The position numbers and the translations under genes were made by a program. A DNA stretch of 64,000 bases from assembly GCA_965248265.1 (NCBI GenBank), contig CBDFJF010000001.1:320001-384000 (forward strand). The letters are read 5' to 3'. Shown piece after piece: positions 3,914-63,920 of the stretch (position 1 is its first letter; the number at the start of each line of letters is the position of its first letter). The notes beneath the pieces were generated by a model. It saw nothing but the letters and a program-made list of their open reading frames with translations, did not search any database and was not told the origin of the DNA. This DNA is from Candidatus Latescibacterota bacterium. GTDB taxonomy: Bacteria > Latescibacterota > UBA2968 > UBA8231.

Positions 3914-4031
3914 TCATCACGATGCGGCGCGGCGACGCATTGGAGAGCATGACGCCGATCCTCCATATTTCATGACCGGCGTTGGGGCAGACATTGGTAG
4001 GGCCGCCAACCCGAAAATTCGGAACGGACGA

Positions 4032-4883
4032 ATGATGGATACCCCACCACTCGCGCTCGTCGTCACCGCGCGCCACCTGCGATCGTTGATCATCGTCGCA
4101 ACTGGTCTTGCGATGATGGCGCCGGCGGAGAGTCGGGCCGAGTTCGATCCCCCGCGGATCACGGATGTCATCCGTCTTGTCGATCGGGGTGCTCTCAACA
4201 CCTCCAGCCTGCGAAAGCTCTACAACATCGACAAAGGCCAGGAGACCAACATTACCAACGGCGACACGCTCAATGTCTACCGCGAGAAACGCATCTCCTC
4301 GCTTGTCCAGCAGCAAGTACGCATCTTCGTGGGAACGCTGACGATCACCGACGCTCATGAGGGATCTGCCCTGGGTGTTTTCGAGCCCAACGAGATAGCG
4401 GGCAGGAACCACGCGGTTCGGCACAAGTCGGCAATGAAGGGTGATTTCGTGATACCCCGGCTGGTGCTCGACTCCAACGTGCTGTTCCAGGCGGCGAGGG
4501 CAGAACTGCTGGGAATCGCCCGGCAGGAGTTCTTGAAAGTGGCCGACTTCATCAAGTTTCATTCCCCCTCCAAGCTCATCATCGAGGGGCACACCGACGC
4601 CGATGGCGATGATGCTTACAACAAGGACCTGTCGCAGCGACGGGCAGAGTCCGTGCGCAGGCTACTGGTCGATGAAAATGATTTCATAACCGAGGACATG
4701 ATCGAAGCCAAAGGCTACGGTGAGGAGCGGCCGCGGGTGAAGAACGATACCGCAATCAACAAGGCGCTCAATCGCCGCATTGAGGTACTCGTGTGGTGGG
4801 AGAGCCTGGAAGAGCGCGTCGACGCAACCGAGTTGGAACTGGATGAAGAGGCGCTGCTCGAAGCTGGAGTTGAAGAAGAATAG
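4032..4883 (+). CDS. OmpA/MotB-family peptidoglycan-binding protein with N-terminal FlgT-C-like beta domain
   Basis: Signal-peptide-like N-terminus. OmpA motifs IEGHTDADG..YN..LSQRRAESV and GYGEERP...NRRIEV. Start could be 3972 or 4032. Confidence 0.85.
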   Translation: MMDTPPLALVVTARHLRSLIIVATGLAMMAPAESRAEFDPPRITDVIRLVDRGALNTSSLRKLYNIDKGQETNITNGDTLNVYREKRISSLVQQQVRIFVGTLTITDAHEGSALGVFEPNEIAGRNHAVRHKSAMKGDFVIPRLVLDSNVLFQAARAELLGIARQEFLKVADFIKFHSPSKLIIEGHTDADGDDAYNKDLSQRRAESVRRLLVDENDFITEDMIEAKGYGEERPRVKNDTAINKALNRRIEVLVWWESLEERVDATELELDEEALLEAGVEEE

Positions 4884-4907
4884 GTGCATGATGCAGGCAA
4901 CAACAGG

Positions 4908-5687
4908 ATGAGAGCTATGACCAACTACTCCAGAGCCGAACACCCGGTGGGACGGGCCAGCGGCCTGCTTTTCGCACTGGTGGTGCTGTCCGTTGTGGTT
5001 TTTACCGGGGACAGCAATGCACAGTTCAAACCACCCCGTATCATTTATGTGATCAATGCCGCCGATCTCGGTATCGCGATACCGGAAGGCGCCGATGACC
5101 GGCAGTACTACATCGATCGCGGTCAGGAATCGAACATAAACAACGGTGATACCCTCAACGTCTATCGCGAGAAACGGTTGTCGCGGCAGATTGCCAGACC
5201 GCTGAAGGTTTTTGTGGGTACGCTCGTGGTAACGGACGCGCAACAGGGATCGGCGCTTGGCAACTTCATAGCCAACGCCTCGATCATGGACAATCCCCTC
5301 ATCCGTTACAAGGTCGGCATGAAGGGGGACCTGGTGGTGCCGCGTATCGTCATCGATTCGAGTGTGCTGTTCAGCGCCGGCAGTGCCGGCCTCGAGTCCG
5401 GGGCAACGGCAGAGTTTGACAAGGTAGCGGATTTCGTCCAGCTCTACTCGCCTTCCAAGCTGTTCATCGACGGCCACACCGACTCGGACGGGGATGCGCG
5501 AGCGAACAAAGAGCTTTCCGAGGATCGGGCCGACGCCGTCAGGCGGGTCCTCGTAGAGGGGTACGACCACATCACGGACGCCATGGTCGAGGCCCGCGGC
5601 TACGGTGAGGAGCGACCGATGGTCAAGAACGACACTAAAGCGAACAAGGCCCTCAACCGGCGTATCGAAGTCCTGGTGTGGCAATAG
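4908..5687 (+). CDS. OmpA/MotB-family protein, tandem paralog of the upstream gene
   Basis: IDGHTDSDG..AN..LSEDRADAV and GYGEERP...NRRIEV. Shares NGDTLNVYREKR and FVGTL with the upstream paralog. Confidence 0.85.
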   Translation: MRAMTNYSRAEHPVGRASGLLFALVVLSVVVFTGDSNAQFKPPRIIYVINAADLGIAIPEGADDRQYYIDRGQESNINNGDTLNVYREKRLSRQIARPLKVFVGTLVVTDAQQGSALGNFIANASIMDNPLIRYKVGMKGDLVVPRIVIDSSVLFSAGSAGLESGATAEFDKVADFVQLYSPSKLFIDGHTDSDGDARANKELSEDRADAVRRVLVEGYDHITDAMVEARGYGEERPMVKNDTKANKALNRRIEVLVWQ

Positions 5688-6277
5688 ACGGTCGCAGCGG
5701 GCTGGAACAGCAGATCGGCTTCATCCTCGAAGTCGAGAAGCTCAAGCAGGTCTTCCGGCAGACCCTGCTGGTGGATGACAAGCGGCGGGAAAACGACGCC
5801 GAGCACTCCTGGCACCTGGCGTTGATGGCACTGCTTTTGGAGCAGCATGCAGCCGGGGAAGTCGATGTCCTCCGTGTAGTCAAGATGGTCCTCATCCACG
5901 ACATCGTCGAGATCGACGCCGGCGACACCTTCGCCTACGACGAAGCGGGTCAGGAAGGCAAGGAGGAGCGCGAGCGCGAAGCTGCCGCCCGCATCTTCGG
6001 GTTGCTACCGGCGGAGGACGGGAATGAGTTGGTGCAGCTTTGGGAGGAGTTCGAGGCCAGACAGAGTGCCGATGCCCGCTACGCCAACGCCCTCGACCGC
6101 TTTCAGCCCCTGTTGCTCAACTACCACGCCGGTGGTGATACCTGGCGCCGGCACGGCGTCCGCAAGGATCAAGTCATCGCACGTAACCGCCACATAAGCG
6201 AGGGCGCTCCGGCGCTTTGGGAATACGCTAAAAAACTGATCGACCGAGCAGTAGCTGAAGGCAAGCTGGACGTCTGA
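5678..6277 (+). CDS. HD-domain phosphohydrolase (YfbR/HDDC2-like 5'-deoxynucleotidase family)
   Basis: RRENDAEHSWHLA, LIHDIVEIDAGD, LWEEFE, ALDRFQP motifs. Confidence 0.88.
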   Translation: MAIDGRSGLEQQIGFILEVEKLKQVFRQTLLVDDKRRENDAEHSWHLALMALLLEQHAAGEVDVLRVVKMVLIHDIVEIDAGDTFAYDEAGQEGKEEREREAAARIFGLLPAEDGNELVQLWEEFEARQSADARYANALDRFQPLLLNYHAGGDTWRRHGVRKDQVIARNRHISEGAPALWEYAKKLIDRAVAEGKLDV

Positions 6278-26021: not shown

Positions 26022-27815
26022 TCACCGTCGATCGAGCGCATTCCGAATCCCGTCGCGCAGCTCCTGAAAAGCGACCGGCTTAACGATGACGGCCTCCACA
26101 CGGTCGATGAGCTCCGGGTCCGGTTCATGGCCCGTGAGCAGGACAATCGAAACCTTGTCGTCTCGTCTTCGGAGTTCTTCGAGGACCTCCTCTCCCGACA
26201 TCCTGGGCATCGACAAATCGAGCAGGACCAGATCGATGACGCCCCGTTCGCTGTCGAAGGTGCTGAGGCCCTCCTGTCCGTCAGCGCTCTCAAGCACGGT
26301 GTACCCGGCCCGCTCCAACATCAAGGCGATCGTCCTGCGGACGGTAGTCTCGTCCTCCACCAGCAGAATCGTCTCTGTGTTGCTGGATACGGTGCGCCGA
26401 GGAGTTTCCTGGTTTTGAACGGCGGGCACGGCCGGGGGCGAAACCGGCAGATATACGGTGAAGGTGCTGCCCTCCCCAGGCTTGCTCTCGCAGTCGATCC
26501 AGCCCCCATGCTGCTCGACAATGCCATAAGCCGTCGACAGACCAAGTCCAGTGCCCTTACCGACCTCTTTGGTGGTGAAGAACGGCTCAAATGCCCGGCG
26601 CTGGGTCTCGTCGTCCATCCCGACGCCCTGGTCCGAGATCCGCGCGCGGATGAATTCGCCATTGCGCTCTCGGTTACCGGCATCGCCGTCGCTCGGCAAC
26701 GTCTGGACATCGACTTCGATTCCCATGGAAGGAGAAGGATGCCGACTCTCGGCGATGGCGTCCCGGGCATTGAGGCACAGGTTCAGGACCACCTGCTCGA
26801 TCTGCTCCGGATGGCCACAGACCGGCAGCAATGAACCCGTCTCTAAACGGATGGTGATTTTGGGATCGAACGTCGAGATACAGACTCGGTAGACGCCCTC
26901 GACTACGCTCGCGAAGTCGAAGACGACCCTGCCCTCGTCGACGGGTTTGCGTGTCAGGACCAGCAACTGCTTGACGATCGCCGCACCTCTAAGACTCATG
27001 TCCAGGGCGTCACCCAGGTAGCGCTGTGTGTCTGCGGGAGATCCGGAGGCAGCCAATTCGAGGCTGCCGTGAATTCCCTGAAGCAGGTTGTTGAAGTTGT
27101 GCGCCACGCCGGCGCCGAGTTGGCCAATCGCCTCCATCTTCTGCGACTGTCGAAGTCGCTCTTCCAGGCGCTTGCTGGTAGTGATGTCGATGACGATGAC
27201 TTCAACGGCGCTGACCTCGCCATCCGCATCGAACACGGGAAAGCAGGAGCCGGTAGCCCACTTGACCTCCCCACTCTTGTGGATCAAACGGAATCCCTGG
27301 TTCGTCGTGGTTTCACCCCGCGCCGCGTTCCTGAATGCACTCAGGCCGCCGCGGTGATCTTCTCCCCGCGTGAGGCGCCAACCAATCCGGCTGTCCGAGT
27401 AGAATTCCTCCGGGGTGTATCCAGTCAGTTCCTGCATCTTCGGACTGACGTAAACGTAGCGGCCGGACAGGTCCATCAACATCACGCCCAGACTGGGCAT
27501 TTCGACCAGATTCCGGTAGCGTGCCTCCGAGGCCTCGAGCCTTCCAAGGTCAAGCAATCGTTGCCGCGTCTCTTCATTGAGCTCTCGCCAGCGGCGAAAG
27601 CTGAACACGCCAAGGGCAATCGCAAGCACAACGAGACCAGTCACAAGCTCCTCGAGCGGCCAACGGTTCTGCGTTTGAGTCAGTGACGCCAGGCCGTCGA
27701 AGAGGTCGAAGTAGGAAACCAGGCAGAAGGCAGCGGCACAGCCCAACAGAGTGAGCACGAGATCCTTCTTCGCGCTCGAAGCGAAGTTCGCGAAACTAGC
27801 GTGGCGCTCGCTCAC
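26022..27815 (-). CDS. Membrane-bound hybrid sensor histidine kinase (2 TM, PAS, HisKA, HATPase, REC)
   Basis: QSQKMEAIGQLGAGVAHNFNNLL, NLCLNARDA, FEPFFTTK..GKGTGLGL, LLVEDE..LLDLSMP. Confidence 0.93.
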   Translation of the reverse strand: MSERHASFANFASSAKKDLVLTLLGCAAAFCLVSYFDLFDGLASLTQTQNRWPLEELVTGLVVLAIALGVFSFRRWRELNEETRQRLLDLGRLEASEARYRNLVEMPSLGVMLMDLSGRYVYVSPKMQELTGYTPEEFYSDSRIGWRLTRGEDHRGGLSAFRNAARGETTTNQGFRLIHKSGEVKWATGSCFPVFDADGEVSAVEVIVIDITTSKRLEERLRQSQKMEAIGQLGAGVAHNFNNLLQGIHGSLELAASGSPADTQRYLGDALDMSLRGAAIVKQLLVLTRKPVDEGRVVFDFASVVEGVYRVCISTFDPKITIRLETGSLLPVCGHPEQIEQVVLNLCLNARDAIAESRHPSPSMGIEVDVQTLPSDGDAGNRERNGEFIRARISDQGVGMDDETQRRAFEPFFTTKEVGKGTGLGLSTAYGIVEQHGGWIDCESKPGEGSTFTVYLPVSPPAVPAVQNQETPRRTVSSNTETILLVEDETTVRRTIALMLERAGYTVLESADGQEGLSTFDSERGVIDLVLLDLSMPRMSGEEVLEELRRRDDKVSIVLLTGHEPDPELIDRVEAVIVKPVAFQELRDGIRNALDRR

Positions 27816-29226: not shown

Positions 29227-29898
29227 ATGTCTGTCCCCCGAATAACGCTGGTTGCTGTTGCTCTACTGTCGCTGGCCTGTGCCGAGGCCGAGGCTCCTGA
29301 AGTCACCGTGGAAACGGAAGATCAAAAACTGATGCACGCCGTCGGCATGGGTGTGGCCATGCAGTTTGATTTCGGTGGTCTGTTTACCGAAGAGGAACTG
29401 GTCTTCATCAAACAGGGGCTCAGCGACGTAGTGTTGCAGCGACCCACCGCCATTTCGGTGGACGACAACTTCATGCAGAGCATGAACCAGCTGGTGATGG
29501 AGCGGCGGTCCGCCGCCAATCTGGAGTCAGGCGCAGACTTCCTGGCGCAGGCGGCCTCAAAGGAAGGTGCGGTGCAAACCGCATCCGGGTTAGTGTACGT
29601 TGAGCTCGAAGCCGGGGCCGGGGCCCACCCCGGGGAAACGGATTCGGTCACCGTCCACTACGAGGGAAGCTTCACCGACGGCCGCGTTTTCGACAGCTCT
29701 CTCAAACGCGGAGAGCCCACGACCTTTATGTTGGGACAGGTAATTCCGGGATGGATCGAGGGGCTGCAGCTGATGAAGCCAGGAGGCAAGGCGAGGTTGG
29801 TAATACCAGGAGAGTTGGCCTACGGACCCAAGGGCTACAGCAACATCCCACCCAATGCCACCCTGATCTTCGAAGTCTCGCTGTTGAGTATTCAGTAG
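29227..29898 (+). CDS. FKBP-type peptidyl-prolyl isomerase (Mip/FkpA-like, lipoprotein-type signal)
   Basis: VHYEG..DGRVFDSS, VIPGWIEGL, LAYG, IPPNATLIFEV. N-terminal LSLAC. Confidence 0.93.
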   Translation: MSVPRITLVAVALLSLACAEAEAPEVTVETEDQKLMHAVGMGVAMQFDFGGLFTEEELVFIKQGLSDVVLQRPTAISVDDNFMQSMNQLVMERRSAANLESGADFLAQAASKEGAVQTASGLVYVELEAGAGAHPGETDSVTVHYEGSFTDGRVFDSSLKRGEPTTFMLGQVIPGWIEGLQLMKPGGKARLVIPGELAYGPKGYSNIPPNATLIFEVSLLSIQ

Positions 29899-30281
29899 GA
29901 AGGGGTCTCGGCGGTGTCGCTTTCGTGCTCTTCGCCAAGTAGCAGCTGTATGTTGGAGACCAGCTGTGACACCTTGATCGGTTTTTCCAACACCCGTGTT
30001 GCGCCGATAGCGATGAGGTGCTCGACGTCTTTGTCGTCGAGGTAGCCCGTCAACACGATTATCGGGATGGTGATTCCTTGGCTACGGACGATTTCAATCG
30101 CCCGCTCCCCGGAAGTTTCCATCACCAAATCGGTGATTATCAGGTCGATGGTAGTCAGGTCGACTTCGGCCAGGGCAGGCGTGGGATCGTCGAAGGCGAG
30201 GATTTCATAACCCTGCCGTTGCAGCAACTCGGTCAGCATATCCCGGAAGCCGGCTGAATCTTCGATGACGAGCAATCGCAT
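29892..30281 (-). CDS. Single-domain response regulator
   Basis: LLVIEDS, IITDLVM, PIIVLTG, LEKP. Confidence 0.9.
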   Translation of the reverse strand: MRLLVIEDSAGFRDMLTELLQRQGYEILAFDDPTPALAEVDLTTIDLIITDLVMETSGERAIEIVRSQGITIPIIVLTGYLDDKDVEHLIAIGATRVLEKPIKVSQLVSNIQLLLGEEHESDTAETPSY

Positions 30282-36284: not shown

Positions 36285-36869
36285 TCATATCGCGGATATT
36301 TTGTCTTCCATACTCGTAGTCGGAGCCGTGCGTCGAAGGGCAAGCAAGGTAATCAGACCCACCCCCAGGCCGATCATGGGTACGAGTAATGGCTGCCCGC
36401 CGGGACAGATCGAAAAAAGCATCGGAATGCCGTACCCGAGTATATAGCCCAATCCGTAACCGATCACGTTGACGATTACCCAGCGGGCAAAGGTGGATCT
36501 CAGACCCAGCATAAGGCCCTGGGCGACGCCGACGAACAGACCGATAGGCAGACCGATCCATGCCCGATCATCCGTCCAATTCAACCAGTCTACTATGAAC
36601 TCTGCTGCCGCCCAGCCAATGGCAAAGCCTATAGCAGTGGCCAGACTCCAGCCGACGACGAGTCTTCTCAACAGGACGACACCCTGCGCCAGGCCTATGA
36701 AGACACCGACGGCGGCACCTGTGATGATGTTGGCGATGTAACATCCTGCATGGGGTTGGGCGTAGTAGTGTACCCAGTAGAATGAGTAACCAACCGAAAC
36801 GCCGATTACGTTGGCCAGCGTCCAGGTCACAGCGAACCTGGCCCCGAAGGGATTGAGTTCGGCCTTCAT
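36285..36869 (-). CDS. Hypothetical Gly-rich multi-pass membrane protein
   Basis: About six TM segments with internal repeat G..IG.AQG..L...W... Confidence 0.7.
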   Translation of the reverse strand: MKAELNPFGARFAVTWTLANVIGVSVGYSFYWVHYYAQPHAGCYIANIITGAAVGVFIGLAQGVVLLRRLVVGWSLATAIGFAIGWAAAEFIVDWLNWTDDRAWIGLPIGLFVGVAQGLMLGLRSTFARWVIVNVIGYGLGYILGYGIPMLFSICPGGQPLLVPMIGLGVGLITLLALRRTAPTTSMEDKISAI

Positions 36870-36885
36870 GAATAGTACCTGAGGA

Positions 36886-37200
36886 TCAGTCTTCGTGAGG
36901 GTGTTTAGGATTATTCCCGGTCCGAATATCAGAGACGTGCCAACGTCTGGCCAGCACCAGAAAGAGCAGTGACAGGAAAACGGTCACCCACCCGACGACA
37001 AAGGTGCTGCCTGCAATGCCGTGGTCGAGGGCCAACCAGCCGAAGGCCAGATTGAAAGTGATATGACCGATTTCTCTGCTGAAACTGACGACGGAGGTAA
37101 CGGTTGCCCGCGCATCCTGTTCGATGGCTGATTGCAACCTCGAAGCGAGCAAGATATCAACGAAGGCGAACGCGAAGAAGAAGAAACCCAGGAATGGCAC
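36886..37200 (-). pseudogene. C-terminal fragment of an MFS transporter
   Basis: RLQSAIE..ARATVTSV motif with three TM helices. No N-terminal half upstream. Confidence 0.6.
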
Positions 37201-37619
37201 AACCAGGTTCCGGTCAACACATAAGGTCTACAACGATGCCCCCAACACTCTTGTCACTTCTCGCGATGTGACTTCCTCACAGAAGGGGTCTTGATCCCAT
37301 ATGCCGGCAGGCTTTTCACAAAAGAATCCCCGATTATGCCGAAAACTGCAATCGCGTTCTTGTTCAACTTGTAAACTGAAGGACCGATAAGGGGTCACTG
37401 TCAATAGACTATATCGGTTGAGGCTTGGAGTCGAGTGGGATGGGAGCTTGTCTGGGTGCGAATGGGTATTCGGCGGCATTGCGAACATGGATTCAGGGCG
37501 GGCTGGTATTTCAATGCTCGAACACGTGGAGGAAGGTCTCAAGTCCCTCGGCCTGAAAGGACGCTCCGTCACCTGCTTTCTTCCGTGTCTGAGTGCGCAA
37601 ACCACGGATCGAGGTCAGC

Positions 37620-40600
37620 TCACACTGAGGTCTTCCTCACCGATTCCAGCACGCTCAACACCGAGTCCATGTCGAACGAATCGACGTGGGGCTTGAGCAG
37701 TGCGGCCAGCTTCGCTTCATCCTCGCTCGCACACGCCATCTCCGCAATCACCAAGCGCAGTTCGGTTACATTTGCCACCTCAGCGGCTGCCCGCACACGC
37801 TCGTGCAGGTCAGCAGAAACTGTAGTCGATTCCAAGACCGCCGGTCCGGCCTCTTCGGGCGCGGCCTGATTCGCCGTTTCCTCAAATGCGACACCCAGCA
37901 TCTGCTCGAGGCACTGACAAATTTGGCCAACCCGTACCGGTTTGCCGATGAACTCGTCGAAGCCAGCCGACAGGTAGTGTTGCCGCTCGTGTTCCAGAGT
38001 TGAAGCGGATACGGCGACAATCTTGAGAGCCAGGTCCGGGTCCGCTACGAGTTTCCGCATAGCCTCCATGCCATCCATCTCGGGCATGCGGATGTCCATG
38101 AATACGATGTCCGGTCGCTCACGTCGACTGATCTCGAGCGCTTCGATACCGTTGACGGCGGAGTGCACTTCGACACCGATCGCCCCCAGCAACTGCTCCA
38201 GAATATCCCGGTTCTCGGGCACGTCATCAGCCACCAACGCTTTCACCTGACAGCCGCCAGCCAACCGCCTGACGCGGCCATAGTCTTCTTTGTGCTCGCG
38301 CACTCCTCCTGCCGCGGTCGAAAGCGGCAGAGTGAAGTAAAAGCGTGTGCCTTCGCGAGACGATTCAAACTCCAGTTCCCCACCCATCAAGTGTACAAGA
38401 CGGCGCGAGACGGCCAGGCCCAAGCCTGTCCCTCCGGTGTCCCTGCCTGCCTCTCCTTGCTGGAACGGCTGGTACAGTGTTTTCTGTTCCTCTTCCGAGA
38501 TCCCTCTCCCGCTATCGATAACCTCGAAGAGATAAGTCTCACCTCCAACCTGCGCGACGCGCAGCGTTACGTCTCCTTCCTGCGTGAACTTCACCGCGTT
38601 GCCCAACAGGTTGATCAGCACCTGCATCAACTTACTCTCATCGCCATATACCAGAACGTGTGACTCTTTCAAACTCTTGAGCTTCCAGCCCAGCGCCTGC
38701 TCGCGGCATCGTAGCTGGAACATCTCTGACACACTCTGCAGTAACCTTACCAGGTCGAAGTCGACGGCGTGAACATCCATGCGGCCGGCTTCGATCTTGG
38801 AGATATCCAGTACCTCGTTGATCAACCTGAGCAGGTGATCACCACTCGCCTGGATTGTTTCCACAGCCTGTCGATGGTTGTCCACCAACTCCGGACTGCT
38901 TTGCATGATCTGCGCATACCCGATGATGGCATTCATCGGGGTCCGGATCTCATGGCTGATATTGGCCAGAAATTGCGACTTCGCCTGGCTGGCCAGTTCG
39001 GCGGCCTCCTTGGCCTCCAGCAGCCCGGCGTTGGACTGTTCGAGCTCGGCGATGAGGCGATTCTGGGCATCCGCGGCCTCGGTGAAGTCCCGGTAACGTG
39101 CGTGCGCGAGGTCGACGACTTCGACGAAATCCTCTATGCGGGCGATCTCCCAGTTGCTGAAGGGCTCTGCTTGTCCACGCCAACCGCGGCGCACACAGAT
39201 GACGCCTGTTTCGAATGGAACGTCCAGAGCCCACACCGTGCCTGATGCGGCCAGTCCCACGTCAGCAGTACCCGAAAGCGGCGCCCACACCTCTTTCTCT
39301 CGAGGATCCATCTGTCGTGGTTTGGGTACGCCCGTGCGTGCCTCTGCCAGGAAACGTCCAACCTCATCCGGGTCCGAGATCGTGGACCTCTGCAACGCGC
39401 CCGCCGAGTCGACCTGCAACGCCTCGACGTGCGAGGTACCCTTCGGCGTGCACAGGGTGAGCTGGTCGAAATGCAGGCCGACGACCAGCAGTTCGTCCGC
39501 AATCTGGGCAAGCACTGTCTGCAGGTGCTCCGGCTGTTTCATATCGAGCACGGTTTGCCGTACGCGCTCCCGTGCTTCCTCGATGGTGAGGCTGCGTAGA
39601 TGCCCAGCGACCTCCTCGTCCTGAGTCTGAACGCTTTCCAGGACGTGGCTGGCGACGGAACGTCCAGCAACATTGAGGACCTCGGCAAGCACCCGCGGTC
39701 CGCCGACCTCCTGGTGTGCGCCCGGCACATTGCGAAGGGTGTGTTCGAGGTCTTCCTCGATATCCTTCAATACTGAGGGAGTCACGTTTTCCATGGTCGC
39801 CATCCGGTACGACACATCAGCCTGCAGGCGTGGTGAGAGCTGGGCCAGCATGGCTCCAGACTGTCGCGGATCCACTTGCGAGAGGATGAGAGCGATGGTT
39901 TGGGGGTGCTCGCGTGAGATGTGGAGGGCTACGTGCTCAGGGCTGATGTTCTTGAGGATGTAGGTGCCCGATGACGCGGTGCTGGTAACGCGCGCAAAGA
40001 TCTCATCCGCCTTGCGCCTTCCGACAGCATGCTCCAGAGCGTTCCGGGTGAACTCGGTGCCTCCGCTTGCCATCCAATCGCCAGAGCGCAGACGCCCAAC
40101 GAACTCGTCGAGCTCACGGGCGTGAATCTCGGCGGACACGTTCTGTAACGCCGCCATGGACTGGGAGACCACTTCAATCTCGTAGTCGGACAGGAGCTTG
40201 AGGATCTTTCCAGTCAACTGCTCACCGAGCCCGACCAGGACGATGGCAACCTTGACCATTGACGGCAGTTCCTCTGAGGGTGAATCAGCGTTTTCCTCGA
40301 GGGCCATGGTGCGAACGATCCGAGCAGCGTCAGCGATGTGGTGGGCAACAAACTCTCTCGGCGTCAGTGTCGCCTGGTCGATCTCCTGCCGGGGGGTGGG
40401 TGGCGCTGGTTCGCCTGCAGTGCCGCCGGTCGATTCGTCGGACAGCGGTTCCGTGTCGGCAGCTGGCGGCGGGTGTAATGCGTGTTCGGCAACGCCGGGC
40501 ACGAACCTGGGTGCAGGCTGGAGCCTGGGGGAGCCCGGTTGTCGGCTCGCGGCGAGCAGTGAGGCGGACAGGCTCCATGCCGGTTCCGGGTAGGGTGGGG

Positions 40601-40715
40601 GAAGTGGCATGGCGTCCACCTCCGTCAGGGTCAGTGGCAGCCAGTCGGCGACGGTCGCCCGCGCTGTCCTGCCAGCGGCGAGTCCCAGGATCCGTGGCTC
40701 AGTCTTGGGAGTCAT
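37620..40715 (-). CDS. FliG(N+M+ARM-C)::GAF-like::histidine kinase::receiver fusion (soluble hybrid kinase)
   Basis: [10 protein letters not shown]...[10 protein letters not shown]...[11 protein letters not shown]...[13 protein letters not shown] is Fli[26 protein letters not shown] and GGTGLGL mark the kinase. VADD...FMDIRMP...GKP is REC. Confidence 0.9.
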
Positions 40716-41791
40716 TGACGTTTCTCCTCACCCGCCGCGATCTCGACCGCGCTTTGCGCCAACCGAAAGCCGATGTGCTCGTTCGCATGGTCCTGCGGCG
40801 CGCTGTTGCGATGGATCGTCCTCACGTTGGGACGGGTCTCGGCATAAAAACCGCCCCGGATTACTCGCTCTTCGCCCGTGTCGGGTCCCTGTGGGTCCAG
40901 GTCAGGACTGTATGGGTAGTAGTTCGACTGGTAGAAGTCAGCGCACCACTCGTAGGCGTTGCCGGCCATGTCCCAGGCTCCGTATGGGCTACGGCCAAGG
41001 GGAAACTCATCGACCGGGGTTGTCGTGCCCACGAGATTGTTGGAATTACATCGTTCGCCATCGACGAAGTGATTCCCCCACGGGTAGAGGCGTCCGTCGT
41101 TGCCGCGGGCTGCCTTCTCCCATTCCGCTTCGGTCGGCAGACGTTTGCCGCGCCATCGGGCGTACTCATTCGCGTCTTCCCATGAGACGTTGACGACCGG
41201 ATGCCTCGACGTGCCCACGGGGTATGTTCCGTCGTGCCAGGCAGGCGGGGCGCGGTGTGAAGTGGCGTTCACGAACTCCTGGTAGCTGTGGTTGGTCACG
41301 GGATAGGCGTCGATGTAGTAGGGTGACATATCTAGTGTGTGAGTGGGTCGCTCGTTGTCCGGGCTGTCGCCTTCGTTGCTACCCATGACGAAGGAGCCGC
41401 CCGGAACGGCTACCATGCCCATCACGTCTTCCATCAATTCTGGTCCGCGCTCGATGGCTTCATAGGCGATGGTTTCGCGAAAGGCTCGAGTGATGCCAGA
41501 TGCCTCCGGCGCAGCGATCTGCTTGATCCTGCAACTGATCAGGTCGCTGCCGACGACGATGTCCCCATGGGCGAACAAGCGATCGTTTACTCGTACATCG
41601 TAGGATCGTCCTACGCGCTTGTTGAGCGTGATAAGGCCGCCGGGCTGCAGCTGCGCAAAAGCGTTCAGGCTCATCTGTAAGCGGCCGAGCTCGACCCTTA
41701 CTTCAAAGCGGATATCTCTGAGATGAGCCAGATTGCCGATTTCACGATCGACCATCTCTCTGGCGTCCGCTTCCGTAATCTTGCTGTTCAT
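40712..41791 (-). CDS. FliN/SPOA domain fused to a formylglycine-generating-enzyme-like (SUMF1) domain
   Basis: [12 protein letters not shown]...[22 protein letters not shown] is [46 protein letters not shown] and IGFR are FGE-like. Confidence 0.9.
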
Positions 41792-42093
41792 CAGACGGCC
41801 CCATCCCTTACGATTTCGGTTACGCGCACCCCGAAGTTCTCGTCTACGGTAACCACCTCTCCCCGCGCTCGGACTCTGCCGTTGAGCAGGATGTCGATCG
41901 GCTCGCCCACGGCTCGTTCAAGCTCGAACAGGGAACTGTCCCCAACCTGCAGCAGTTGATCCAGCGTACAGTTCGTTCGTCCCAGCTCGAAGGCAACGGT
42001 CACTTCCACATCGCGCGTGAAATCTTCGACCGCTGACTCCTCTTTCCGCGGGGGTTGTCTTTGCGTTGGAGTATGCTTGTCTTTGCCAGCCAT
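41791..42093 (-). CDS. fliN: Flagellar motor switch protein FliN-like
   Basis: DVEVTVAFELGRT...GEPIDILLNG...RGEVVTVDENFGVRVTEI. GGAG RBS. Confidence 0.9.
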   Translation of the reverse strand: MAGKDKHTPTQRQPPRKEESAVEDFTRDVEVTVAFELGRTNCTLDQLLQVGDSSLFELERAVGEPIDILLNGRVRARGEVVTVDENFGVRVTEIVRDGAV

Positions 42094-42128
42094 GCTGCAA
42101 TCTCCGTGTTAGTGTTGGTGCGCCGTGA

Positions 42129-43094
42129 TCACTCGTTAGCGAGTGGCTGTAGCGCCTCGGGAATCTTCCCCACGGCTTTCACGGCGATGCGTCCGTTGTC
42201 CGTGGCGAACGGTCGCACGTAGAACTTGGGCAATCCTCCCACGCGCAGGATGAGAGGTTCGGTTGTCTGCGTGTCGCAGCAGATGATATCATCGACCTGC
42301 AGGCTGTCTACGTCGGCCAGGGGCAAACGCTTGCGCGCCATCTCGACGGTGAGCGGCAGTTTCACGGGGCCCAATGCAGCGCGGCTGCGCCGAGTCGCCT
42401 CCTCCTGTTCGCGGCGCCCACGGCGCACGTGGGTCTGCTGGCCAAGGAGCGGCAGGATCGACTCCAGGGTGAGGTAGGGGTAGCAGAGGCTCACCAGTCC
42501 GGATGCAAGGGGCGAATTCACCTCGAAACCGAGCACGACGACAATCTCGGCGGCGGCGGTCGTGTCCATGAACTCCGGGTTCGTTTCCAGTTCGATATCT
42601 GAGATTTCCACCGGCAGGATCGGGTGCCAGGTGTGCTCCAGATTCTCCACCACGCGCTTGACGAACTTGGCGATCACACCCATCTCGATCTGTGACATCT
42701 GTCGCTCATCGACGCCCTCCGACGAACCCTTCCCTCCGAACACGCGGTCGACGGCGGAAAAAACGAAAGGCATGGAAAAATCGAGAATGGCCTGGCCATT
42801 CGTCGGACCGAGCATGAACTGATAGGAACAGGACGGGTTTGACAAGGAGGTGATGAAATCAGCGTAGGTTTTCTGGGCAATGAAGGCTGTGTCAACGTCG
42901 ACGACGTCACGCATGGACGCGGAAAACGTCGAACTCAGCTGCCGCGCGAAGTGGTCATGTAAATTCTCCAGGGTGCGTAACTGATCCGTGTTGACCTGGG
43001 CGGGGTGCCTGAAATCGTAGGTAGCAACGATCCCATGCGATTCAGTTTCTGTCGGTGTACCATCGGTCACTGCTGTATTTGGAGTGTCACTCAT
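42129..43094 (-). CDS. fliM: Flagellar motor switch protein FliM-like, lacking the N-terminal CheY-binding peptide
   Basis: YDFRHP...LRTLENLHDHFAR, VDRVFGGKG, ETNPEF, LCYPYLTLE, C-terminal SPOA domain. Confidence 0.9.
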   Translation of the reverse strand: MSDTPNTAVTDGTPTETESHGIVATYDFRHPAQVNTDQLRTLENLHDHFARQLSSTFSASMRDVVDVDTAFIAQKTYADFITSLSNPSCSYQFMLGPTNGQAILDFSMPFVFSAVDRVFGGKGSSEGVDERQMSQIEMGVIAKFVKRVVENLEHTWHPILPVEISDIELETNPEFMDTTAAAEIVVVLGFEVNSPLASGLVSLCYPYLTLESILPLLGQQTHVRRGRREQEEATRRSRAALGPVKLPLTVEMARKRLPLADVDSLQVDDIICCDTQTTEPLILRVGGLPKFYVRPFATDNGRIAVKAVGKIPEALQPLANE

Positions 43095-44646
43095 GCCTTG
43101 CTCCTCCTGGCGTGGTTTCTGCAGCCGTCCTGTGCAAGTCCGCAGGGTCAACCTCGTTGCGCAACACCCGGTACAACCGGTTTCGGCTCGTTCCCAGCTG
43201 ACGCGCCGCCTTCGTCACGTTGCCATCGCTCTGCTGCATGGCCACGCCTACCACCCACTTCTCCGCGCACCGCACAGCCCGATCCAGGTCCAGCGGCAAG
43301 TCGGGAGCCCCCGGACTCCTGTCACCTGAATCTCCACCTTCGCCGTCCGTCGTCGCTCGCGGAACGCGCAAGAAGTGCAAGTGATGCGGCAGTACTTCAA
43401 CGCCCCCACTCTCGATCAAGGCGCGCTCCATGAGGTTTTTCAGCTCGCGCACGTTTCCCGGAAACCGATATCGTTGCAGAATTTCCACCGCATCCAAGCT
43501 GAGATCCGGTACCTCGCGCCCCATCTCTTCCGCGAACAGCTTGAGGAAGTGGCGCGCCAGAATCGGAATGTCCTCCGTGCGCTCTCGCAGCGGCGGTGAG
43601 GTGACCGTGAACCGCGCCAGCCGGTAGTACAGATCCTGCCGAAAGCTCTTCGCCTGGAGCCGCTGTTGCAGCTCGACGTTTGTCGCCGCCAGCACCCGCA
43701 CCGCCACCTTCTTCCCCTCGGTTGCTCCGATTCGCCACACAACGCCGTCCTCCAGAACCCGCAGTAGCTTGCTCTGCAGCTCCAGTGGCATGTCGGCGAT
43801 TTCGTCCAGAAACAGCGTGCCGCCGTCGGCGATCTCGAAGAATCCGAGCCGGTCGTCACTGGCACCTGTGAATGATCCCCGGTTATGTCCGAACAGGGCC
43901 GATTCGACAAGGTCCGCCGGAATGGCCGCGCAGTTTACGGGCACGAAGGGCCCATCCTGCCTTGCCCCACCGAAGTGGATGGCCCGTGCGATCAGCTCCT
44001 TGCCGGTTCCACTCTCACCAGTGATCAGCACCGAGGTCATCGGGCTGTCCTGCATCAGATGGATCTCTTTGAAGATTCTCTGGATGGTAGCGCTCTGTCC
44101 TACGAAATCCTCCAACCCCCAGCGTACAGCTTCGCGCTCGGAAATCATCGATAGACGTCCCTTGAGCGCCTTCCGCTGGACGATCTCAAGCTCCAGCTCT
44201 CGATTGGTCTCTGCGAGTGCCGCATTCTTCCTCTGCAGTTCCGTCGCCAGCCGGCTCAGTCGCACGTGCGTTTCGACTCGAGAGAGAACCTCCTCTTCCT
44301 GGAATGGCTTGGTGATGTAGTCGACCCCACCGGCCCTGAAACCGGCAATGACATCCTCTTTTCGGTCTCGGCCGGTCAGGAAGATGACGGGAATCCCGGC
44401 GGTCTCTTCAGTTTGCTTGAGCCGTCTGCACACTTCGTATCCATCCATCTCGGGCATGACCACATCCAGCAGTACGATGTCCGGCTGGCCCCGTACCGCT
44501 ATATGGAGAGCATTCTGTCCTCTGGTTGCTACCATTACGCTATTATTCGCTGCCTCGAGAAGCTCGAGGAGGACTTTGAGGTTCGTCGGATTGTCATCGA
44601 CAATGAGGATTCTCGCTCCCCGCGGAGTGGATTGTGGCTCAACCAT
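43087..44646 (-). CDS. NtrC-family sigma-54-dependent response regulator (REC, coiled coil, AAA+, Fis HTH)
   Basis: ILIVDD..LLDVVMP, GESGTGKE, GSFTGA, LFLDEI, FRQDLYYRL, PGNVRELKN, NVTKAARQLGTSR. GGAGGA RBS before ATG 44646. Confidence 0.94.
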   Translation of the reverse strand: MVEPQSTPRGARILIVDDNPTNLKVLLELLEAANNSVMVATRGQNALHIAVRGQPDIVLLDVVMPEMDGYEVCRRLKQTEETAGIPVIFLTGRDRKEDVIAGFRAGGVDYITKPFQEEEVLSRVETHVRLSRLATELQRKNAALAETNRELELEIVQRKALKGRLSMISEREAVRWGLEDFVGQSATIQRIFKEIHLMQDSPMTSVLITGESGTGKELIARAIHFGGARQDGPFVPVNCAAIPADLVESALFGHNRGSFTGASDDRLGFFEIADGGTLFLDEIADMPLELQSKLLRVLEDGVVWRIGATEGKKVAVRVLAATNVELQQRLQAKSFRQDLYYRLARFTVTSPPLRERTEDIPILARHFLKLFAEEMGREVPDLSLDAVEILQRYRFPGNVRELKNLMERALIESGGVEVLPHHLHFLRVPRATTDGEGGDSGDRSPGAPDLPLDLDRAVRCAEKWVVGVAMQQSDGNVTKAARQLGTSRNRLYRVLRNEVDPADLHRTAAETTPGGARHE

Positions 44647-44659
44647 CTTTATCCTCCAA

Positions 44660-44675
44660 TGCAATGCCTGTACCA
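44660..44675 (-). promoter_or_regulatory. Candidate sigma-54 -24/-12 promoter TGGTACAGGCATTGCA
   Basis: Correct GG-N10-GC spacing and near-consensus sequence. Caveat: the predicted start site falls only a few nt before the ATG. Confidence 0.55.
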
Positions 44676-44774
44676 ACTCGACTGGATGCTGGCTTTATAT
44701 ATTGTATTTAATTGAGTTATGACATTTTAAAAGGAGTTCGTATGCCCACTGGAATCGTACCGAATTCGTAGCAG

Positions 44775-44816
44775 TGTAACAAAATCAGTACAGATGACTG
44801 TCACGCAATCGGAACA
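44775..44816. promoter_or_regulatory. Tandem TGT-N12-ACA boxes (candidate enhancer/UAS for a sigma-54 activator)
   Basis: TGTAACAAAATCAGTACA (44775-44792) and TGTCACGCAATCGGAACA (44799-44816) are 13/18 identical and 24 bp apart. Confidence 0.6.
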
Positions 44817-62471: not shown

Positions 62472-63920
62472 GTGAAAGAAAGCGTTAAATCGTTACCCTC
62501 CGTGGACCAAATTCTCAATCTGGAGTCCACAACTGAGCTGCTGCGCAGGTACCGGCGGGAGCACGTCACCGCGACGGTTCGCCGGGCACTGCAAGAGCTG
62601 CGCGAAGAGCTGATCGCGCAGGTGAAGGCTACCAACGGCGCATCCACGGCGCCGGGGTCGACTACCCGTGACTCGCTGACGGCTCGAGTCGAGTCCATGA
62701 TTGCCGTGGCCCTTGGCGCCGAAAACCAGGCCAGCCTCCATCCCGTCATCAACGCAACCGGAGTTATCCTTCACACCGGTCTGGGGCGCGCGCCGCTGCC
62801 GGCGCAGGCTCTGGAGGCGATCCGAGATGTGGCCGGGAGTTACTGCAACCTGGAACTCGACCTGCAGTCGGGTGATCGGGGTTCGCGCTTCGTCCATATT
62901 GAACCACTGATCTGCGAACTCTCCGGCGCCGAGGCGGCCGTGGTCGTCAACAACAACGCGGGAGCGGTGCTGCTGATGTTGAGCGTTCTCGCGTGTGGCC
63001 GTGAGGTCATCGTCTCCCGCGGCGAACTGGTCGAGATAGGGGGCTCCTTCCGAATTCCCGACATAATAGAAGCCAGTGGCGCCACGATTCGCGAAGTCGG
63101 AACAACGAATCGAACCCATTTAGCCGACTATGAAAATGCGATCTCCGCGGATACCGGACTTATCCTGGCCGTCCATCCGAGCAATTACAGGGTCGAGGGC
63201 TTCACCTCGGGAGTCGATCTGACCGAACTCGTCGAACTCGGAACGCGCGCCGGGGTTGCGGTGGCCTACGACCTGGGAGGAGGTGCCCTGATGGATCTCG
63301 CAGAATGGGGTCTGCCGCGCGAACCGGTCGTCGGGCAGGCGCTGGCGACTGGCGTTGACGTGGTCAGCTTCAGTGGGGACAAAGTGCTCGGCGGCCCCCA
63401 GGCCGGGATCATAGCCGGCAAGCAGGGCTGTGTGCAGGCCATGCGGAATCATCCGATGATGAGGGCCTTGCGCTGTGACAAGCTCATACTCGCCGCTCTC
63501 GAGGCGACCCTCAAGCTCTACAACCTGCCCCCCGCTGAGATTACCGAACTCCATCCCGTGTTGCGCATGCTCTGCGAGCCGGCAGACCTGACGCAGGCGC
63601 GAGCAAGGCAACTGCTCGGCATGCTTTCCTCGCGAGCCCGGTCGCAACTGTCGCCACAGGTCGAAGCCTCGAAAGCGCAAGGCGGCAGCGGCGCCCTGCC
63701 TTTAGTGGAACTCCCCAGCTGGGCCCTGTCATTGGCGCCCCGTTTTTGCACCATAGTGCAATTGGCGCGGGCACTACGCAACGGCGCCGTGCCGGTGGTC
63801 GGACGAATACAGAAGGACAGGCTCCTCCTCGATGTGCGCACGGTGTTCGACGGTGATATCGAACTCCTCGCCAGTGCCCTGGAGGCTGCACTCCCAGCCC
63901 CGGACGGCACCGACGCGTAG
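62472..63920 (+). CDS. selA: L-seryl-tRNA(Sec) selenium transferase
   Basis: VINATGVILHTGLGRA, VNNNAGA, SRGELVEIGGSFRIP, EVGTTNRTH, FSGDK.LGGPQAG. Confidence 0.96.
   Translation: MKESVKSLPSVDQILNLESTTELLRRYRREHVTATVRRALQELREELIAQVKATNGASTAPGSTTRDSLTARVESMIAVALGAENQASLHPVINATGVILHTGLGRAPLPAQALEAIRDVAGSYCNLELDLQSGDRGSRFVHIEPLICELSGAEAAVVVNNNAGAVLLMLSVLACGREVIVSRGELVEIGGSFRIPDIIEASGATIREVGTTNRTHLADYENAISADTGLILAVHPSNYRVEGFTSGVDLTELVELGTRAGVAVAYDLGGGALMDLAEWGLPREPVVGQALATGVDVVSFSGDKVLGGPQAGIIAGKQGCVQAMRNHPMMRALRCDKLILAALEATLKLYNLPPAEITELHPVLRMLCEPADLTQARARQLLGMLSSRARSQLSPQVEASKAQGGSGALPLVELPSWALSLAPRFCTIVQLARALRNGAVPVVGRIQKDRLLLDVRTVFDGDIELLASALEAALPAPDGTDA

Follow-up and report, generated by a model that had tools for sequence, protein, structure and literature searches.

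Gene content and organization of the locus

The window analyzed here (the whole 64,000-nucleotide stretch, positions 320,001 to 384,000 of contig CBDFJF010000001.1, assembly GCA_965248265.1) comes from a Candidatus Latescibacterota bacterium and carries five tightly coupled genes on its minus strand, at 37620-44675. They encode an NtrC-type response regulator, paralogues of the flagellar cytoplasmic (C) ring proteins FliM and FliN, a second FliN domain joined to an FGE-sulfatase-fold domain, and a protein in which a shortened FliG is fused to a GAF-like domain, a histidine kinase and a receiver (Table 1). We discuss below whether this FliG-kinase module is a two-component system whose input is a switch complex that has left the motor.

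All five genes were assigned by Pfam, in agreement with the initial annotation, which had listed the same content from the letters and open reading frames (ORFs) of the window. The gene junctions that it described are also real. The activator and fliM genes overlap at 43087-43094 (ATGAGTGA), a 35-nt gap (42094-42128) separates fliM from fliN, fliN meets the FliN::FGE-like gene at TGATG (41789-41793), and the latter is joined to the FliG-kinase gene by ATGA (40712-40715). The activator ORF (43087-44676) matches Response_reg (3.7e-29), Sigma54_activat (9.4e-65), AAA_lid_14 and HTH_8. Its start is most likely the ATG at 44646-44644 behind GGAGGA, not the TTG at 44676. The operon had been drawn as reaching 44816; its genes stand, and 44677-44816 is DNA upstream of the activator gene.

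Three small ORFs lie downstream of the kinase gene. One (37228-37605) has no Pfam match at E<=5, the other two (36886-37200 and 36285-36869) have Pfam matches only far below the curated cut-off, and none of the three has a counterpart beside the orthologues in relatives. We therefore consider the operon to consist of five genes. A selenoprotein or recoding explanation was rejected, as the frames are open in translation table 11.

Table 1. Features of the FliG-kinase operon, with two further C-ring fusion loci in the last row. Positions are those of the window unless a locus is named.
Feature	Position	Strand	Basis or remark
Predicted sigma-54-type -24/-12 element, TGGTAC-N5-TTGCA	44660..44675	-	~14 nt upstream of activator ATG
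NtrC-type response regulator / sigma-54 enhancer-binding protein	43087..44646	-	REC, AAA+ with GSFTGA, HTH_8
FliM paralogue	42129..43094 (Pfam-scanned ORF 42129-43151)	-	FliM 3.3e-46, FliMN_C 1.2e-11
FliN paralogue, 100 aa	41791..42093	-	SpoA/FliMN_C domain, Pfam FliMN_C 5.7e-20
FliN domain fused to FGE-sulfatase-fold domain	40712..41791	-	FliMN_C 1.1e-14, FGE-sulfatase 2.6e-63
FliG::GAF-like::histidine kinase::receiver fusion, 1031 aa	37620..40715	-	FliG_N 2.5e-28, FliG_M 3e-26, HisKA, HATPase_c, Response_reg
Fusion: conserved N-terminal linear motif, residues 1-60, RILG..WxPP..E..P..YPS	40536..40715	-	Kept across 23-sequence family
Fusion: FliF C-terminal-like peptide, residues 100-148, directly ahead of FliG_N	40272..40418	-	Family hidden Markov model (HMM)
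Fusion: FliG N, M (EHPQ 269-272), GG linker (338-339), ARM_C	39585..40280	-	Homology ends at MFxF hinge, residue 377
Fusion: GAF-like sensor domain, residues ~395-530	39126..39533	-	Helix + 6-strand pattern, predicted local distance difference test (pLDDT) 85-95
Fusion: HisKA (H588) + HATPase_c core	38319..38984	-	Pfam; invariant residues
Fusion: hybrid-kinase receiver (D874)	37911..38237	-	Pfam; invariant residues
Fusion: C-terminal four-helix tail	37623..37823	-	Modelled helices 968-1024
Other C-ring fusion loci	G042 L062:732-2225 and 3620-5689; G065 L065:7564-9615

A FliG without its torque bundle is fused to a kinase

The fusion is homologous to FliG over residues ~146-377. Over 142-377 it shares 48% identity with a canonical-looking paralogue encoded in the same genome, and it matches solved FliG chains in PDB, among them 5TDY, 5WUJ and 8z4d, an engineered FliF-FliG fusion. 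When the nine FliG paralogues of the genome are aligned, homology of the fusion stops exactly at the MFxF hinge of the others. FliG_N, FliG_M, the GG linker and ARM_C are kept and the torque-helix bundle is absent, the only FliG_C signal in Pfam being the ARM repeat at 254-326. The alignment thus supports an earlier observation that the torque domain is missing. Across a 23-sequence family alignment, E269, P271 and Q272 of the EHPQ motif and both glycines of the linker are invariant, and H270 is nearly so.

An AlphaFold2 model of the fusion (mean pLDDT 76.3) has one continuous helix (367-390) crossing the junction between FliG and the GAF-like domain, and a long dimerization and histidine phosphotransfer helix after that domain. 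The GAF-like stretch has no Pfam match at E<=5. It has weak homologues in ~1300-aa Reg_prop-type kinases, and its Atlas feature matches to GAF clusters (0.90-0.93) are a lead only. A fold search with the full model was dominated by histidine kinases and is uninformative for this part.

The catalytic half carries the hallmarks of a two-component protein: an H-box histidine, N, G1 and G2 boxes, a receiver acidic pocket and a phospho-acceptor aspartate. H588, N702/N706, D734-G736-G738 and G762-G766 of the kinase, and D830, D831, D874 and K925 of the receiver, are invariant in the 23 sequences. The tail has no Pfam match at E<=5 and no invariant histidine in the same alignment, so it is not a histidine phosphotransfer (HPt) domain; none was found among the scanned neighbors either.

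A FliF-like peptide precedes FliG_N

An HMM of the family columns for fusion residues 100-150 was searched against the 40,294 ORFs of at least 60 aa in the genome. The top match is the C-terminal region of FliF (residues 465-503, E 4.5e-16), a protein that ends ...ETPHDIILSRVQQMVRERPEDAAKLIRTMLVEDTA. The fusion itself follows (4.6e-12), then one FliG from each of two other accessory clusters (4e-6 and 2.4e-5), and beyond FliF and these three N-extended FliGs there is nothing else at E<10 in the set. The six FliGs of the genome that do not have the peptide are the full-length, canonical-looking ones. The peptide is modelled as two helices (119-125 and 127-140; pLDDT 84-88) beside disordered linkers. 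According to the available part of PMC8956890, two helices of FliF_C co-fold with helices of FliG_N. Because a FliF_C-like copy precedes FliG_N in the same chain, the FliF-binding groove of FliG_N may be filled from within.

The arrangement extends beyond this genome. A profile of peptide plus FliG_N gave 4187 matches at E<=0.001 among 1.84 billion representatives. The peptide occurs in 33 of the best 150 representative clusters: 15 full-length FliGs, 13 C-less FliGs (~320-370 aa), 3 kinase fusions and 2 fragments. One more YscJ/FliF-like ORF, a short one, is present in this genome (C2:2882258-2883235; PF01514 1.3e-12; 1.5e-12 in phmmer with FliF 401-505) and is not matched by the peptide HMM.

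The N-terminal extension of the fusion has no Pfam match at E<=5. Its linear motif recurs in the genome only in the FliG of one accessory cluster (cluster B, below; E 0.009), and it is also found in accessory FliGs of three other genomes (G098, G095 and G157). Complex prediction of residues 1-62 with the FliM paralogue, the FliN paralogue and the FliN domain of the FGE-like fusion gave a median of 0.31 against a mark of 0.32, and speaks neither for nor against binding.

FliM, FliN and the FGE-like domain

The remaining C-ring parts are recognizable in the same way. The FliM paralogue has a middle domain with FGGKG, a GGxG motif, and FliMN_C domains occur in three proteins; FGGKG in FliM and EHPQ in FliG are thus retained, as first noted. 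The CheY-P-binding N-terminal peptide (LSQDEIDALL-type) is absent. Its loss, also proposed earlier, is borne out by comparison with the FliM of the main flagellar cluster, which starts MGDILSQDEIDALL and carries the peptide.

The domain fused to the second FliN has the FGE-sulfatase fold (it also matches PDB FGE chains at E 1e-43) and is described as cytoplasmic, with no evident N-terminal signal peptide when read by eye. The cysteine pair of FGE is catalytic and binds copper. Both cysteines are missing here: LCHDSYCN of 6muj/2q17 aligns to A..ETRPN. They are likewise missing in three free FGE-like paralogues and in four of the five other C-ring-linked FGE-like domains read (mgL072, G042, G063 and G039); in the fifth, the FliN::FGE of G094, the search motif was not found. 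Conservation of the module does not extend to the FGE-like domain, which is fused in G094 and absent in G098. A search with the FliN::FGE junction (residues 1-200) reduced 353 candidates to the query itself and two FGE-only proteins, a result that says nothing about rarity because the word index evidently misses the 44%-identical copy in G094.

The same domain is found beside FliG in a metagenome contig (L072:3-2385), where the gene directly upstream of a 548-aa full-length FliG with the N-terminal motif is an FGE-like ORF that is cut by the contig edge and shares 59% identity with the FGE part of the present fusion. Even as a separate protein, the domain occurs together with accessory FliGs.

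Proposed output through an NtrC-type activator

The activator has the features of a sigma-54-dependent regulator, namely an AAA+ domain with a GSFTGA loop (a GAFTGA variant, at residue 267 of the 529-aa ORF) and a helix-turn-helix domain, and rpoN is present in the genome (C1:559941-560414). The predicted -24/-12 element differs by one mismatch from TGGCAC-N5-TTGCW and is one of five such matches (at most one mismatch) in the 64 kb. At up to two mismatches the window has 45 matches where 29.1 ± 5.9 are expected, a number reached in 1 of 100 shuffles. The orthologue in G098 has TGGCAT-N5-TTGCC at the equivalent upstream position, so the element is kept in two genera. Its place just upstream of the activator ATG, here and in G098, suggests that the activator would autoregulate its own operon via sigma-54. 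A promoter and terminator scan gave nothing beyond chance. Transfer of phosphate from the kinase to the adjacent activator would be consistent with their adjacency, translational coupling and synteny in G098.

Conservation of the module in relatives

FliG_N, FliG_M and HisKA occur together in 30 of the best 120 protein matches to the fusion (P0005-P0034), at 39-58% identity and mostly over the full length. The named organisms among the 30 are Candidatus Latescibacteria or Latescibacterota, which supports the guess at this phylum in the initial annotation. Three (G150, G094 and G098) of 167 further genomes from the phylum have strong matches to the GAF-like region, and a scan of 185,579 species, with one genome each, returned the same three. 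Two are labelled Candidatus Latescibacterota and one 'uncultured Gemmatimonadetes'. The fusion is thus no assembly chimera: independent assemblies supplied the 30 protein clusters that carry it, and it is present in four species-level genomes.

Around the fusion, the core is stable and the output varies. The G098 locus encodes an NtrC-type regulator (65% identity), FliM (60%), FliN, a plain 118-aa FliN and the FliG-kinase (48%). The G094 locus encodes FliM, FliN, FliN::FGE, FliG-kinase, REC::PP2C (SpoIIE) and STAS proteins, the FliM adjoining the FliG-kinase being ~60% identical. Its kinase gene is split into two ORFs (752 and 269 aa); the intact 1036-aa P0014 is essentially identical to this copy in the FliG region used for a tree. 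On a 5-kb contig, the G150 locus has a FliG-kinase and REC::PP2C. The order FliM-FliN-FliN(±FGE)-FliG-kinase is found in all three loci that reach upstream, with the FGE domain in two of them, and no flanking genes are shared between the loci compared. The regulator is NtrC-type in two genomes and REC-PP2C in two, with STAS next to it in one. The sigma-54 output proposed at first thus holds in two of the four fusion-carrying genomes; the other two use the receiver-PP2C regulator.

A metagenome scan gave 599 matching stretches, from which 80 loci were retained, nearly all matching the FliG part only. No FliG-kinase was found in the 8 of these 80 that were annotated (match past query residue 233).

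Flagellar genes elsewhere in the genome and phylum

A scan of its neighbors showed that the operon is not encoded among flagellar genes and that the adjacent genes are unrelated. The label 'orphan' is nevertheless true of the window only, as the genome (7.32 Mb, two contigs, 92% complete) has a flagellar cluster, nine FliG genes and eight FliM-like genes. The one flagellar cluster (contig C2, 4.10-4.12 Mb) is complete save for fliG and holds flhA, fliF, fliM, fliN, fliP, motA/B, fliH/I/J and a hook gene; there are 10 flagellin_N matches in the genome. At C2:4115021-4117625, fliF is directly followed by fliH. With no fliG in the main fliF operon, the rotor FliG must come from dispersed paralogues.

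Six of the nine FliG genes are free-standing and full-length, and the others are the kinase fusion and one each in two accessory clusters. Cluster A (C2:272854-275667) encodes FliN-FliN-FliG-FliM with a full-length FliG. Cluster B (C2:1677730-1680312, or C2:1677730-1681347 with its regulators) encodes, co-oriented, an extracytoplasmic function (ECF) sigma factor, a zf-HC2 anti-sigma factor, two FliNs, a 363-aa FliG and FliM. Its FliG is cut at the same MFxF hinge as the kinase fusion, with N, M and ARM_C only, and it has the FliF_C-like peptide. No clear orthologue of this FliG was found in the 76 genomes of the family, and the best matches outside this genome are 36-40% identical.

Three of the dispersed fliG genes (C1:265586-266641, C1:710486-711529 and C1:1502012-1503193) encode nearly identical proteins, with ~85% DNA identity that is confined to the coding region and does not extend into the flanks. 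This pattern suggests old duplicates under strong purifying selection. A full-length fliG (N+M+C) lies 404 nt past the window end (C1:384404-385618, minus strand) and adjoins a selenocysteine synthase gene (SelA; window 62472-63920).

An injectisome was rejected as the home of these proteins, since the genome has only one FHIPEP (PF00771) gene, and FliG is not known to have an injectisome counterpart. There is a single FliF, FHIPEP (FlhA/SctV), FliP and MotA in the genome. PF01514 matches FliF and one weak 204-aa ORF, and no second type III export apparatus was found.

Some other genes in the window deserve mention. A single-domain receiver ORF (29892-30281, minus strand) makes the statement that there is no cheY in the 64 kb not strictly right. 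A PAS-HisKA-HATPase-REC hybrid kinase is encoded at 26022-27815 (minus strand). Two adjacent OmpA-family ORFs (3972-5687, plus strand) were picked up by phmmer with the MotB of the genome.

Multiple FliGs are common in the class, whose members often have 4-12 FliG_M matches. One complete genome (G071; one contig, 8.4 Mb, 100% complete) keeps rod genes and has matches to FliG_M (8), FliM (5) and flagellin (9), with FliF only as a 345-aa ORF; the Pfam families used picked up no FlhA, FliP or full-length FlhB. This may hint, weakly, at a recent loss of the export cluster with the C-ring paralogues kept. The flhA of G098 consists of two adjacent ORFs (C5:2476664-2478614; profile positions 1-185 and 186-656), which is a frameshift or assembly error.

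A wider family of C-ring fusions

The kinase is not the only domain joined to C-ring proteins in this phylum. Full-length FGE-like::FliG proteins of ~690 aa, with the torque domain retained, occur in five genomes (G042, G039, G063, G065 and G044), and a sixth (G066) has a 510-aa form ending at a contig edge. REC::FliM is present in G042 and G066 and REC-REC::FliM in G065, and G157 encodes a single 924-aa FliM-FliN-FliG polypeptide (L060:3422-6196). Such fusions are usually clustered with extra FliM and FliN genes. In the present genome, an ECF sigma factor of 401 aa with regions 2 and 4 (C1:657150-658355, minus strand) is extended at its C-terminus by a stretch matching part of the FliM middle domain (Pfam FliM 3.5e-8, residues 313-395).

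A switch complex turned to kinase control?

So, what is a switch complex doing in front of a kinase? The reading that we favor, and in which we have about even confidence, is that the operon encodes a C-ring-derived kinase-control complex that would not need the membrane-supramembrane (MS) ring. The module would then be a two-component system specific to Latescibacterota, its input and scaffold being a paralogue of the flagellar switch complex that has lost the torque part. We favor it because the ring-building parts are kept, the stator-facing part is removed, the MS-ring contact is internal, a kinase is added and the interchangeable outputs act on transcription. The FliF_C-like peptide in cis, together with a conserved core that has interchangeable outputs, argues for co-option away from the motor. 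A cytoplasmic scaffold that clusters the kinase and an FGE-like domain, with a putative ligand-binding role for the latter, had already been proposed. Its co-option is supported by the domain content, the loss of the torque bundle and the conservation of the fusion; that the kinase polymerizes or clusters is something we infer.

The proposed mechanism can be laid out in order. The fusion keeps the FliG domains that build a C ring: FliG_N, FliG_M (whose EHPQ serves FliM binding), the GG linker, and ARM_C, through which FliG subunits stack. Its FliF site would be filled in cis or by a neighboring subunit, and the complex could then assemble without a membrane MS ring. The FliM paralogue would sit on FliG_M, and its FliM_C domain, the FliN paralogue and FliN::FGE-like would form the base. 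At the canonical hinge to the torque bundle, a hinge that moves when the motor switches, the continuous helix would act as a rigid joint and lead into the GAF-like domain and a dimeric kinase, whose activity could be set by the assembly, or by the cooperative conformational state, of the FliG/FliM lattice. That state is possibly modulated by a ligand of the GAF-like domain or by the FGE-like domain. Phosphate would pass to the NtrC-type activator, which with sigma-54 would activate its targets, probably including its own operon.

Several observations weigh against this reading. Carriage of the fusion goes with flagellar genes: all four fusion genomes have FlhA, the three relatives with 6-12 FliG_M matches each, and a flagellum-linked role fits this as well. 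Of 168 genomes of the phylum, 72 have FliG_M and 63 have FlhA (E<=1e-20), and the two sets largely coincide. FliG_N is 48% identical to the canonical paralogues, with EHPQ and GGxG unchanged, so mixing with the FliM and FliG of the motor is possible. Assembly, and occupation of FliG_N in cis, are predictions from sequence, and the peptide of this genome is among the more diverged, without the RERPED part. In a FliG tree (LG+G4, 58 rows, quick method) the kinase fusions do not group together in a single clade; they need four label changes, of which at least two are forced. As this tree is poorly resolved, we do not take it to decide between one origin and several. G098 does without the FGE-like domain, a plain FliN taking its place. 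The sigma-54 element would place the transcription start only ~3-5 nt before the ATG, and elements with one mismatch turn up five times in 64 kb. Finally, the lack of an HPt domain leaves the kinase's own receiver without a clear role.

A bolder reading is tentative, though conceivable. The FliG/FliM/FliN assembly serves the flagellar motor and the sorting platform of injectisomes; a free, self-templating, C-ring-like allosteric lattice would be a third life for these proteins, as an ultrasensitive on/off device for kinases. The MS-ring contact would be internalized as FliF_C::FliG, and cooperative switching of the lattice would drive the kinase. Sister devices would control ECF sigma/anti-sigma pairs, partner-switching phosphatases and receiver-fused FliM, and the accessory C-ring sets of Latescibacterota would form a family of 'switch-complex signalosomes'.

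The strongest rival to a kinase-control complex apart from the motor is that the module works at the real flagellum, docking on or inserting into the MS and C rings of the single flagellar system to report its assembly or state to a sigma-54 or partner-switching cascade, as a hard-wired version of the Campylobacter FlgS/FlgR checkpoint, whose cytoplasmic kinase responds to multimers of FliF and FliG. We regard this as somewhat unlikely. It keeps weight because the carriers are flagellated as far as tested and because the FliG and FliM interfaces (FliG_N, EHPQ and GGxG) are intact. Moreover, with no fliG in the main fliF operon mixed rings are conceivable, and a canonical FliG_N could take up the FliF_C-like peptide. 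FlgSR likewise combines a kinase, an NtrC-type regulator and sigma-54, and the available part of PMC3760246 describes it as dependent on FliF and FliG. In cis, however, the peptide would compete with FliF, and a FliM and two FliNs of its own are superfluous for a mere motor sensor. This FliM lacks the CheY-binding peptide, the outputs vary between NtrC-type and REC-PP2C/STAS (with an ECF sigma factor in the sister cluster), and none of the three longer loci is linked to flagellar genes.

It is also possible, if doubtful, that there is no ring at all. The FliG, FliM and FliN domains would then be stoichiometric adaptors, for example 2:2:2:2 around a kinase dimer, giving an otherwise ordinary hybrid kinase an unusual accessory-protein input. 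The geometry favors this, since a kinase that is dimeric by family is a poor match to ~34 C-ring subunits and there is no MS ring as a template to set ring size. The kinase half is also 60-66% identical over its core to ordinary Reg_prop/Y_Y_Y hybrid kinases, with weak matches in the GAF region. Yet it is the polymerization parts that are kept and conserved (ARM_M with ARM_C, the GG linker, FliG_N plus peptide), and the stator-facing bundle alone that is removed. Two FliN genes with FliM_C mirror the FliM_C:FliN spiral at the base of the C ring. Last, an assembly chimera or functionless flagellar-gene duplicates, for which the split kinase gene of G094 and the many duplicated flagellar genes of this genome might be cited, are very improbable and can be excluded for practical purposes because the same architecture recurs in independent assemblies, including the intact P0014, the catalytic and interface residues are invariant, and the reading frames are intact and translationally coupled.

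Should a kinase-control complex apart from the motor be what the operon encodes, a piece of the best-studied rotary machine of bacteria would have been converted into a scaffold for signalling. Cooperativity in the switch complex is known to be extreme, and placing a kinase within it would open a new route to a switch-like two-component system. The natural FliF_C::FliG fusion bears on how FliG rings are templated and on assembly free of the MS ring, and such proteins offer a soluble, self-complemented FliG for structural work. The recurrent fusions to kinase, receiver, ECF sigma and FGE-like domains lead to testable hypotheses on the regulatory surfaces of the C ring. If the module instead serves the motor, it would still be a first, namely a checkpoint kinase of flagellar assembly that is fused to a protein of the rotor.

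Comparison with known systems

The initial annotation knew of no system of this kind, and a literature search turned up no equivalent. In the parts of the literature available to it, the search found no FliG-kinase fusion, natural FliF_C::FliG fusion or FGE-linked C-ring protein described, and no account of C-ring paralogues in Latescibacteria; it returned only engineered FliF-FliG fusions and spirochaete FliG paralogues.

The closest parallel in composition is the C ring itself (Salmonella 8UMD/8UOX), with which the module shares FliG N and M with EHPQ, the GG linker and ARM_C, the GGxG of FliM, and the SpoA domains of FliM_C and FliN. Unlike the C ring, it has neither the torque bundle nor the CheY-binding FliM peptide, and a kinase replaces the stator-facing domain. 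It also carries a FliF_C-like peptide in cis and an FGE-like domain on one FliN, and it is encoded apart from fliF, fliH/I and the mot genes. The module fits the definition of a two-component system, and it lacks three of the features that define the switch complex of a motor.

In the chemoreceptor-CheA-CheW arrays, a histidine kinase sits in a cooperative lattice that amplifies signals. The scaffold proteins are unrelated, with no receptor or CheW here, and the likeness would be one of mechanism only. The HisKA-HATPase-REC half has its closest relatives in the Reg_prop/Y_Y_Y hybrid kinases of the phylum (P0036-P0053 and others), whose periplasmic beta-propeller sensors are replaced here by the FliF_C-like peptide and FliG. 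PorK/GldK and PvdO, among the PDB matches, share the FGE-sulfatase fold. The domain here differs in being fused to FliN (to FliG in other families), with no evident signal peptide; loss of the catalytic cysteines is, in this comparison, established for the FliN-fused domain only.

FliF-FliG fusions engineered in Salmonella and Vibrio likewise join the FliF C-terminus to FliG_N, and they still assemble rings according to the available parts of PMC6079021, PMC10941966 and PMC11481574. Those contain whole FliF with its membrane ring, whereas the fusion here is natural and has only the last ~40 residues of FliF and no membrane part. In signalling logic, the nearest system is FlgS/FlgR of Campylobacter jejuni, which, in the available part of PMC3760246, also pairs a cytoplasmic kinase lacking a classical sensor with an NtrC-type regulator, sigma-54 and a link to FliG and FliF. 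There, the kinase is a protein apart that monitors the MS ring, rotor and export apparatus of the actual flagellum. In the present module, kinase and FliG share one chain, which includes the FliF_C-like peptide and comes with a FliM and FliN of its own, and in some relatives the output is not sigma-54.

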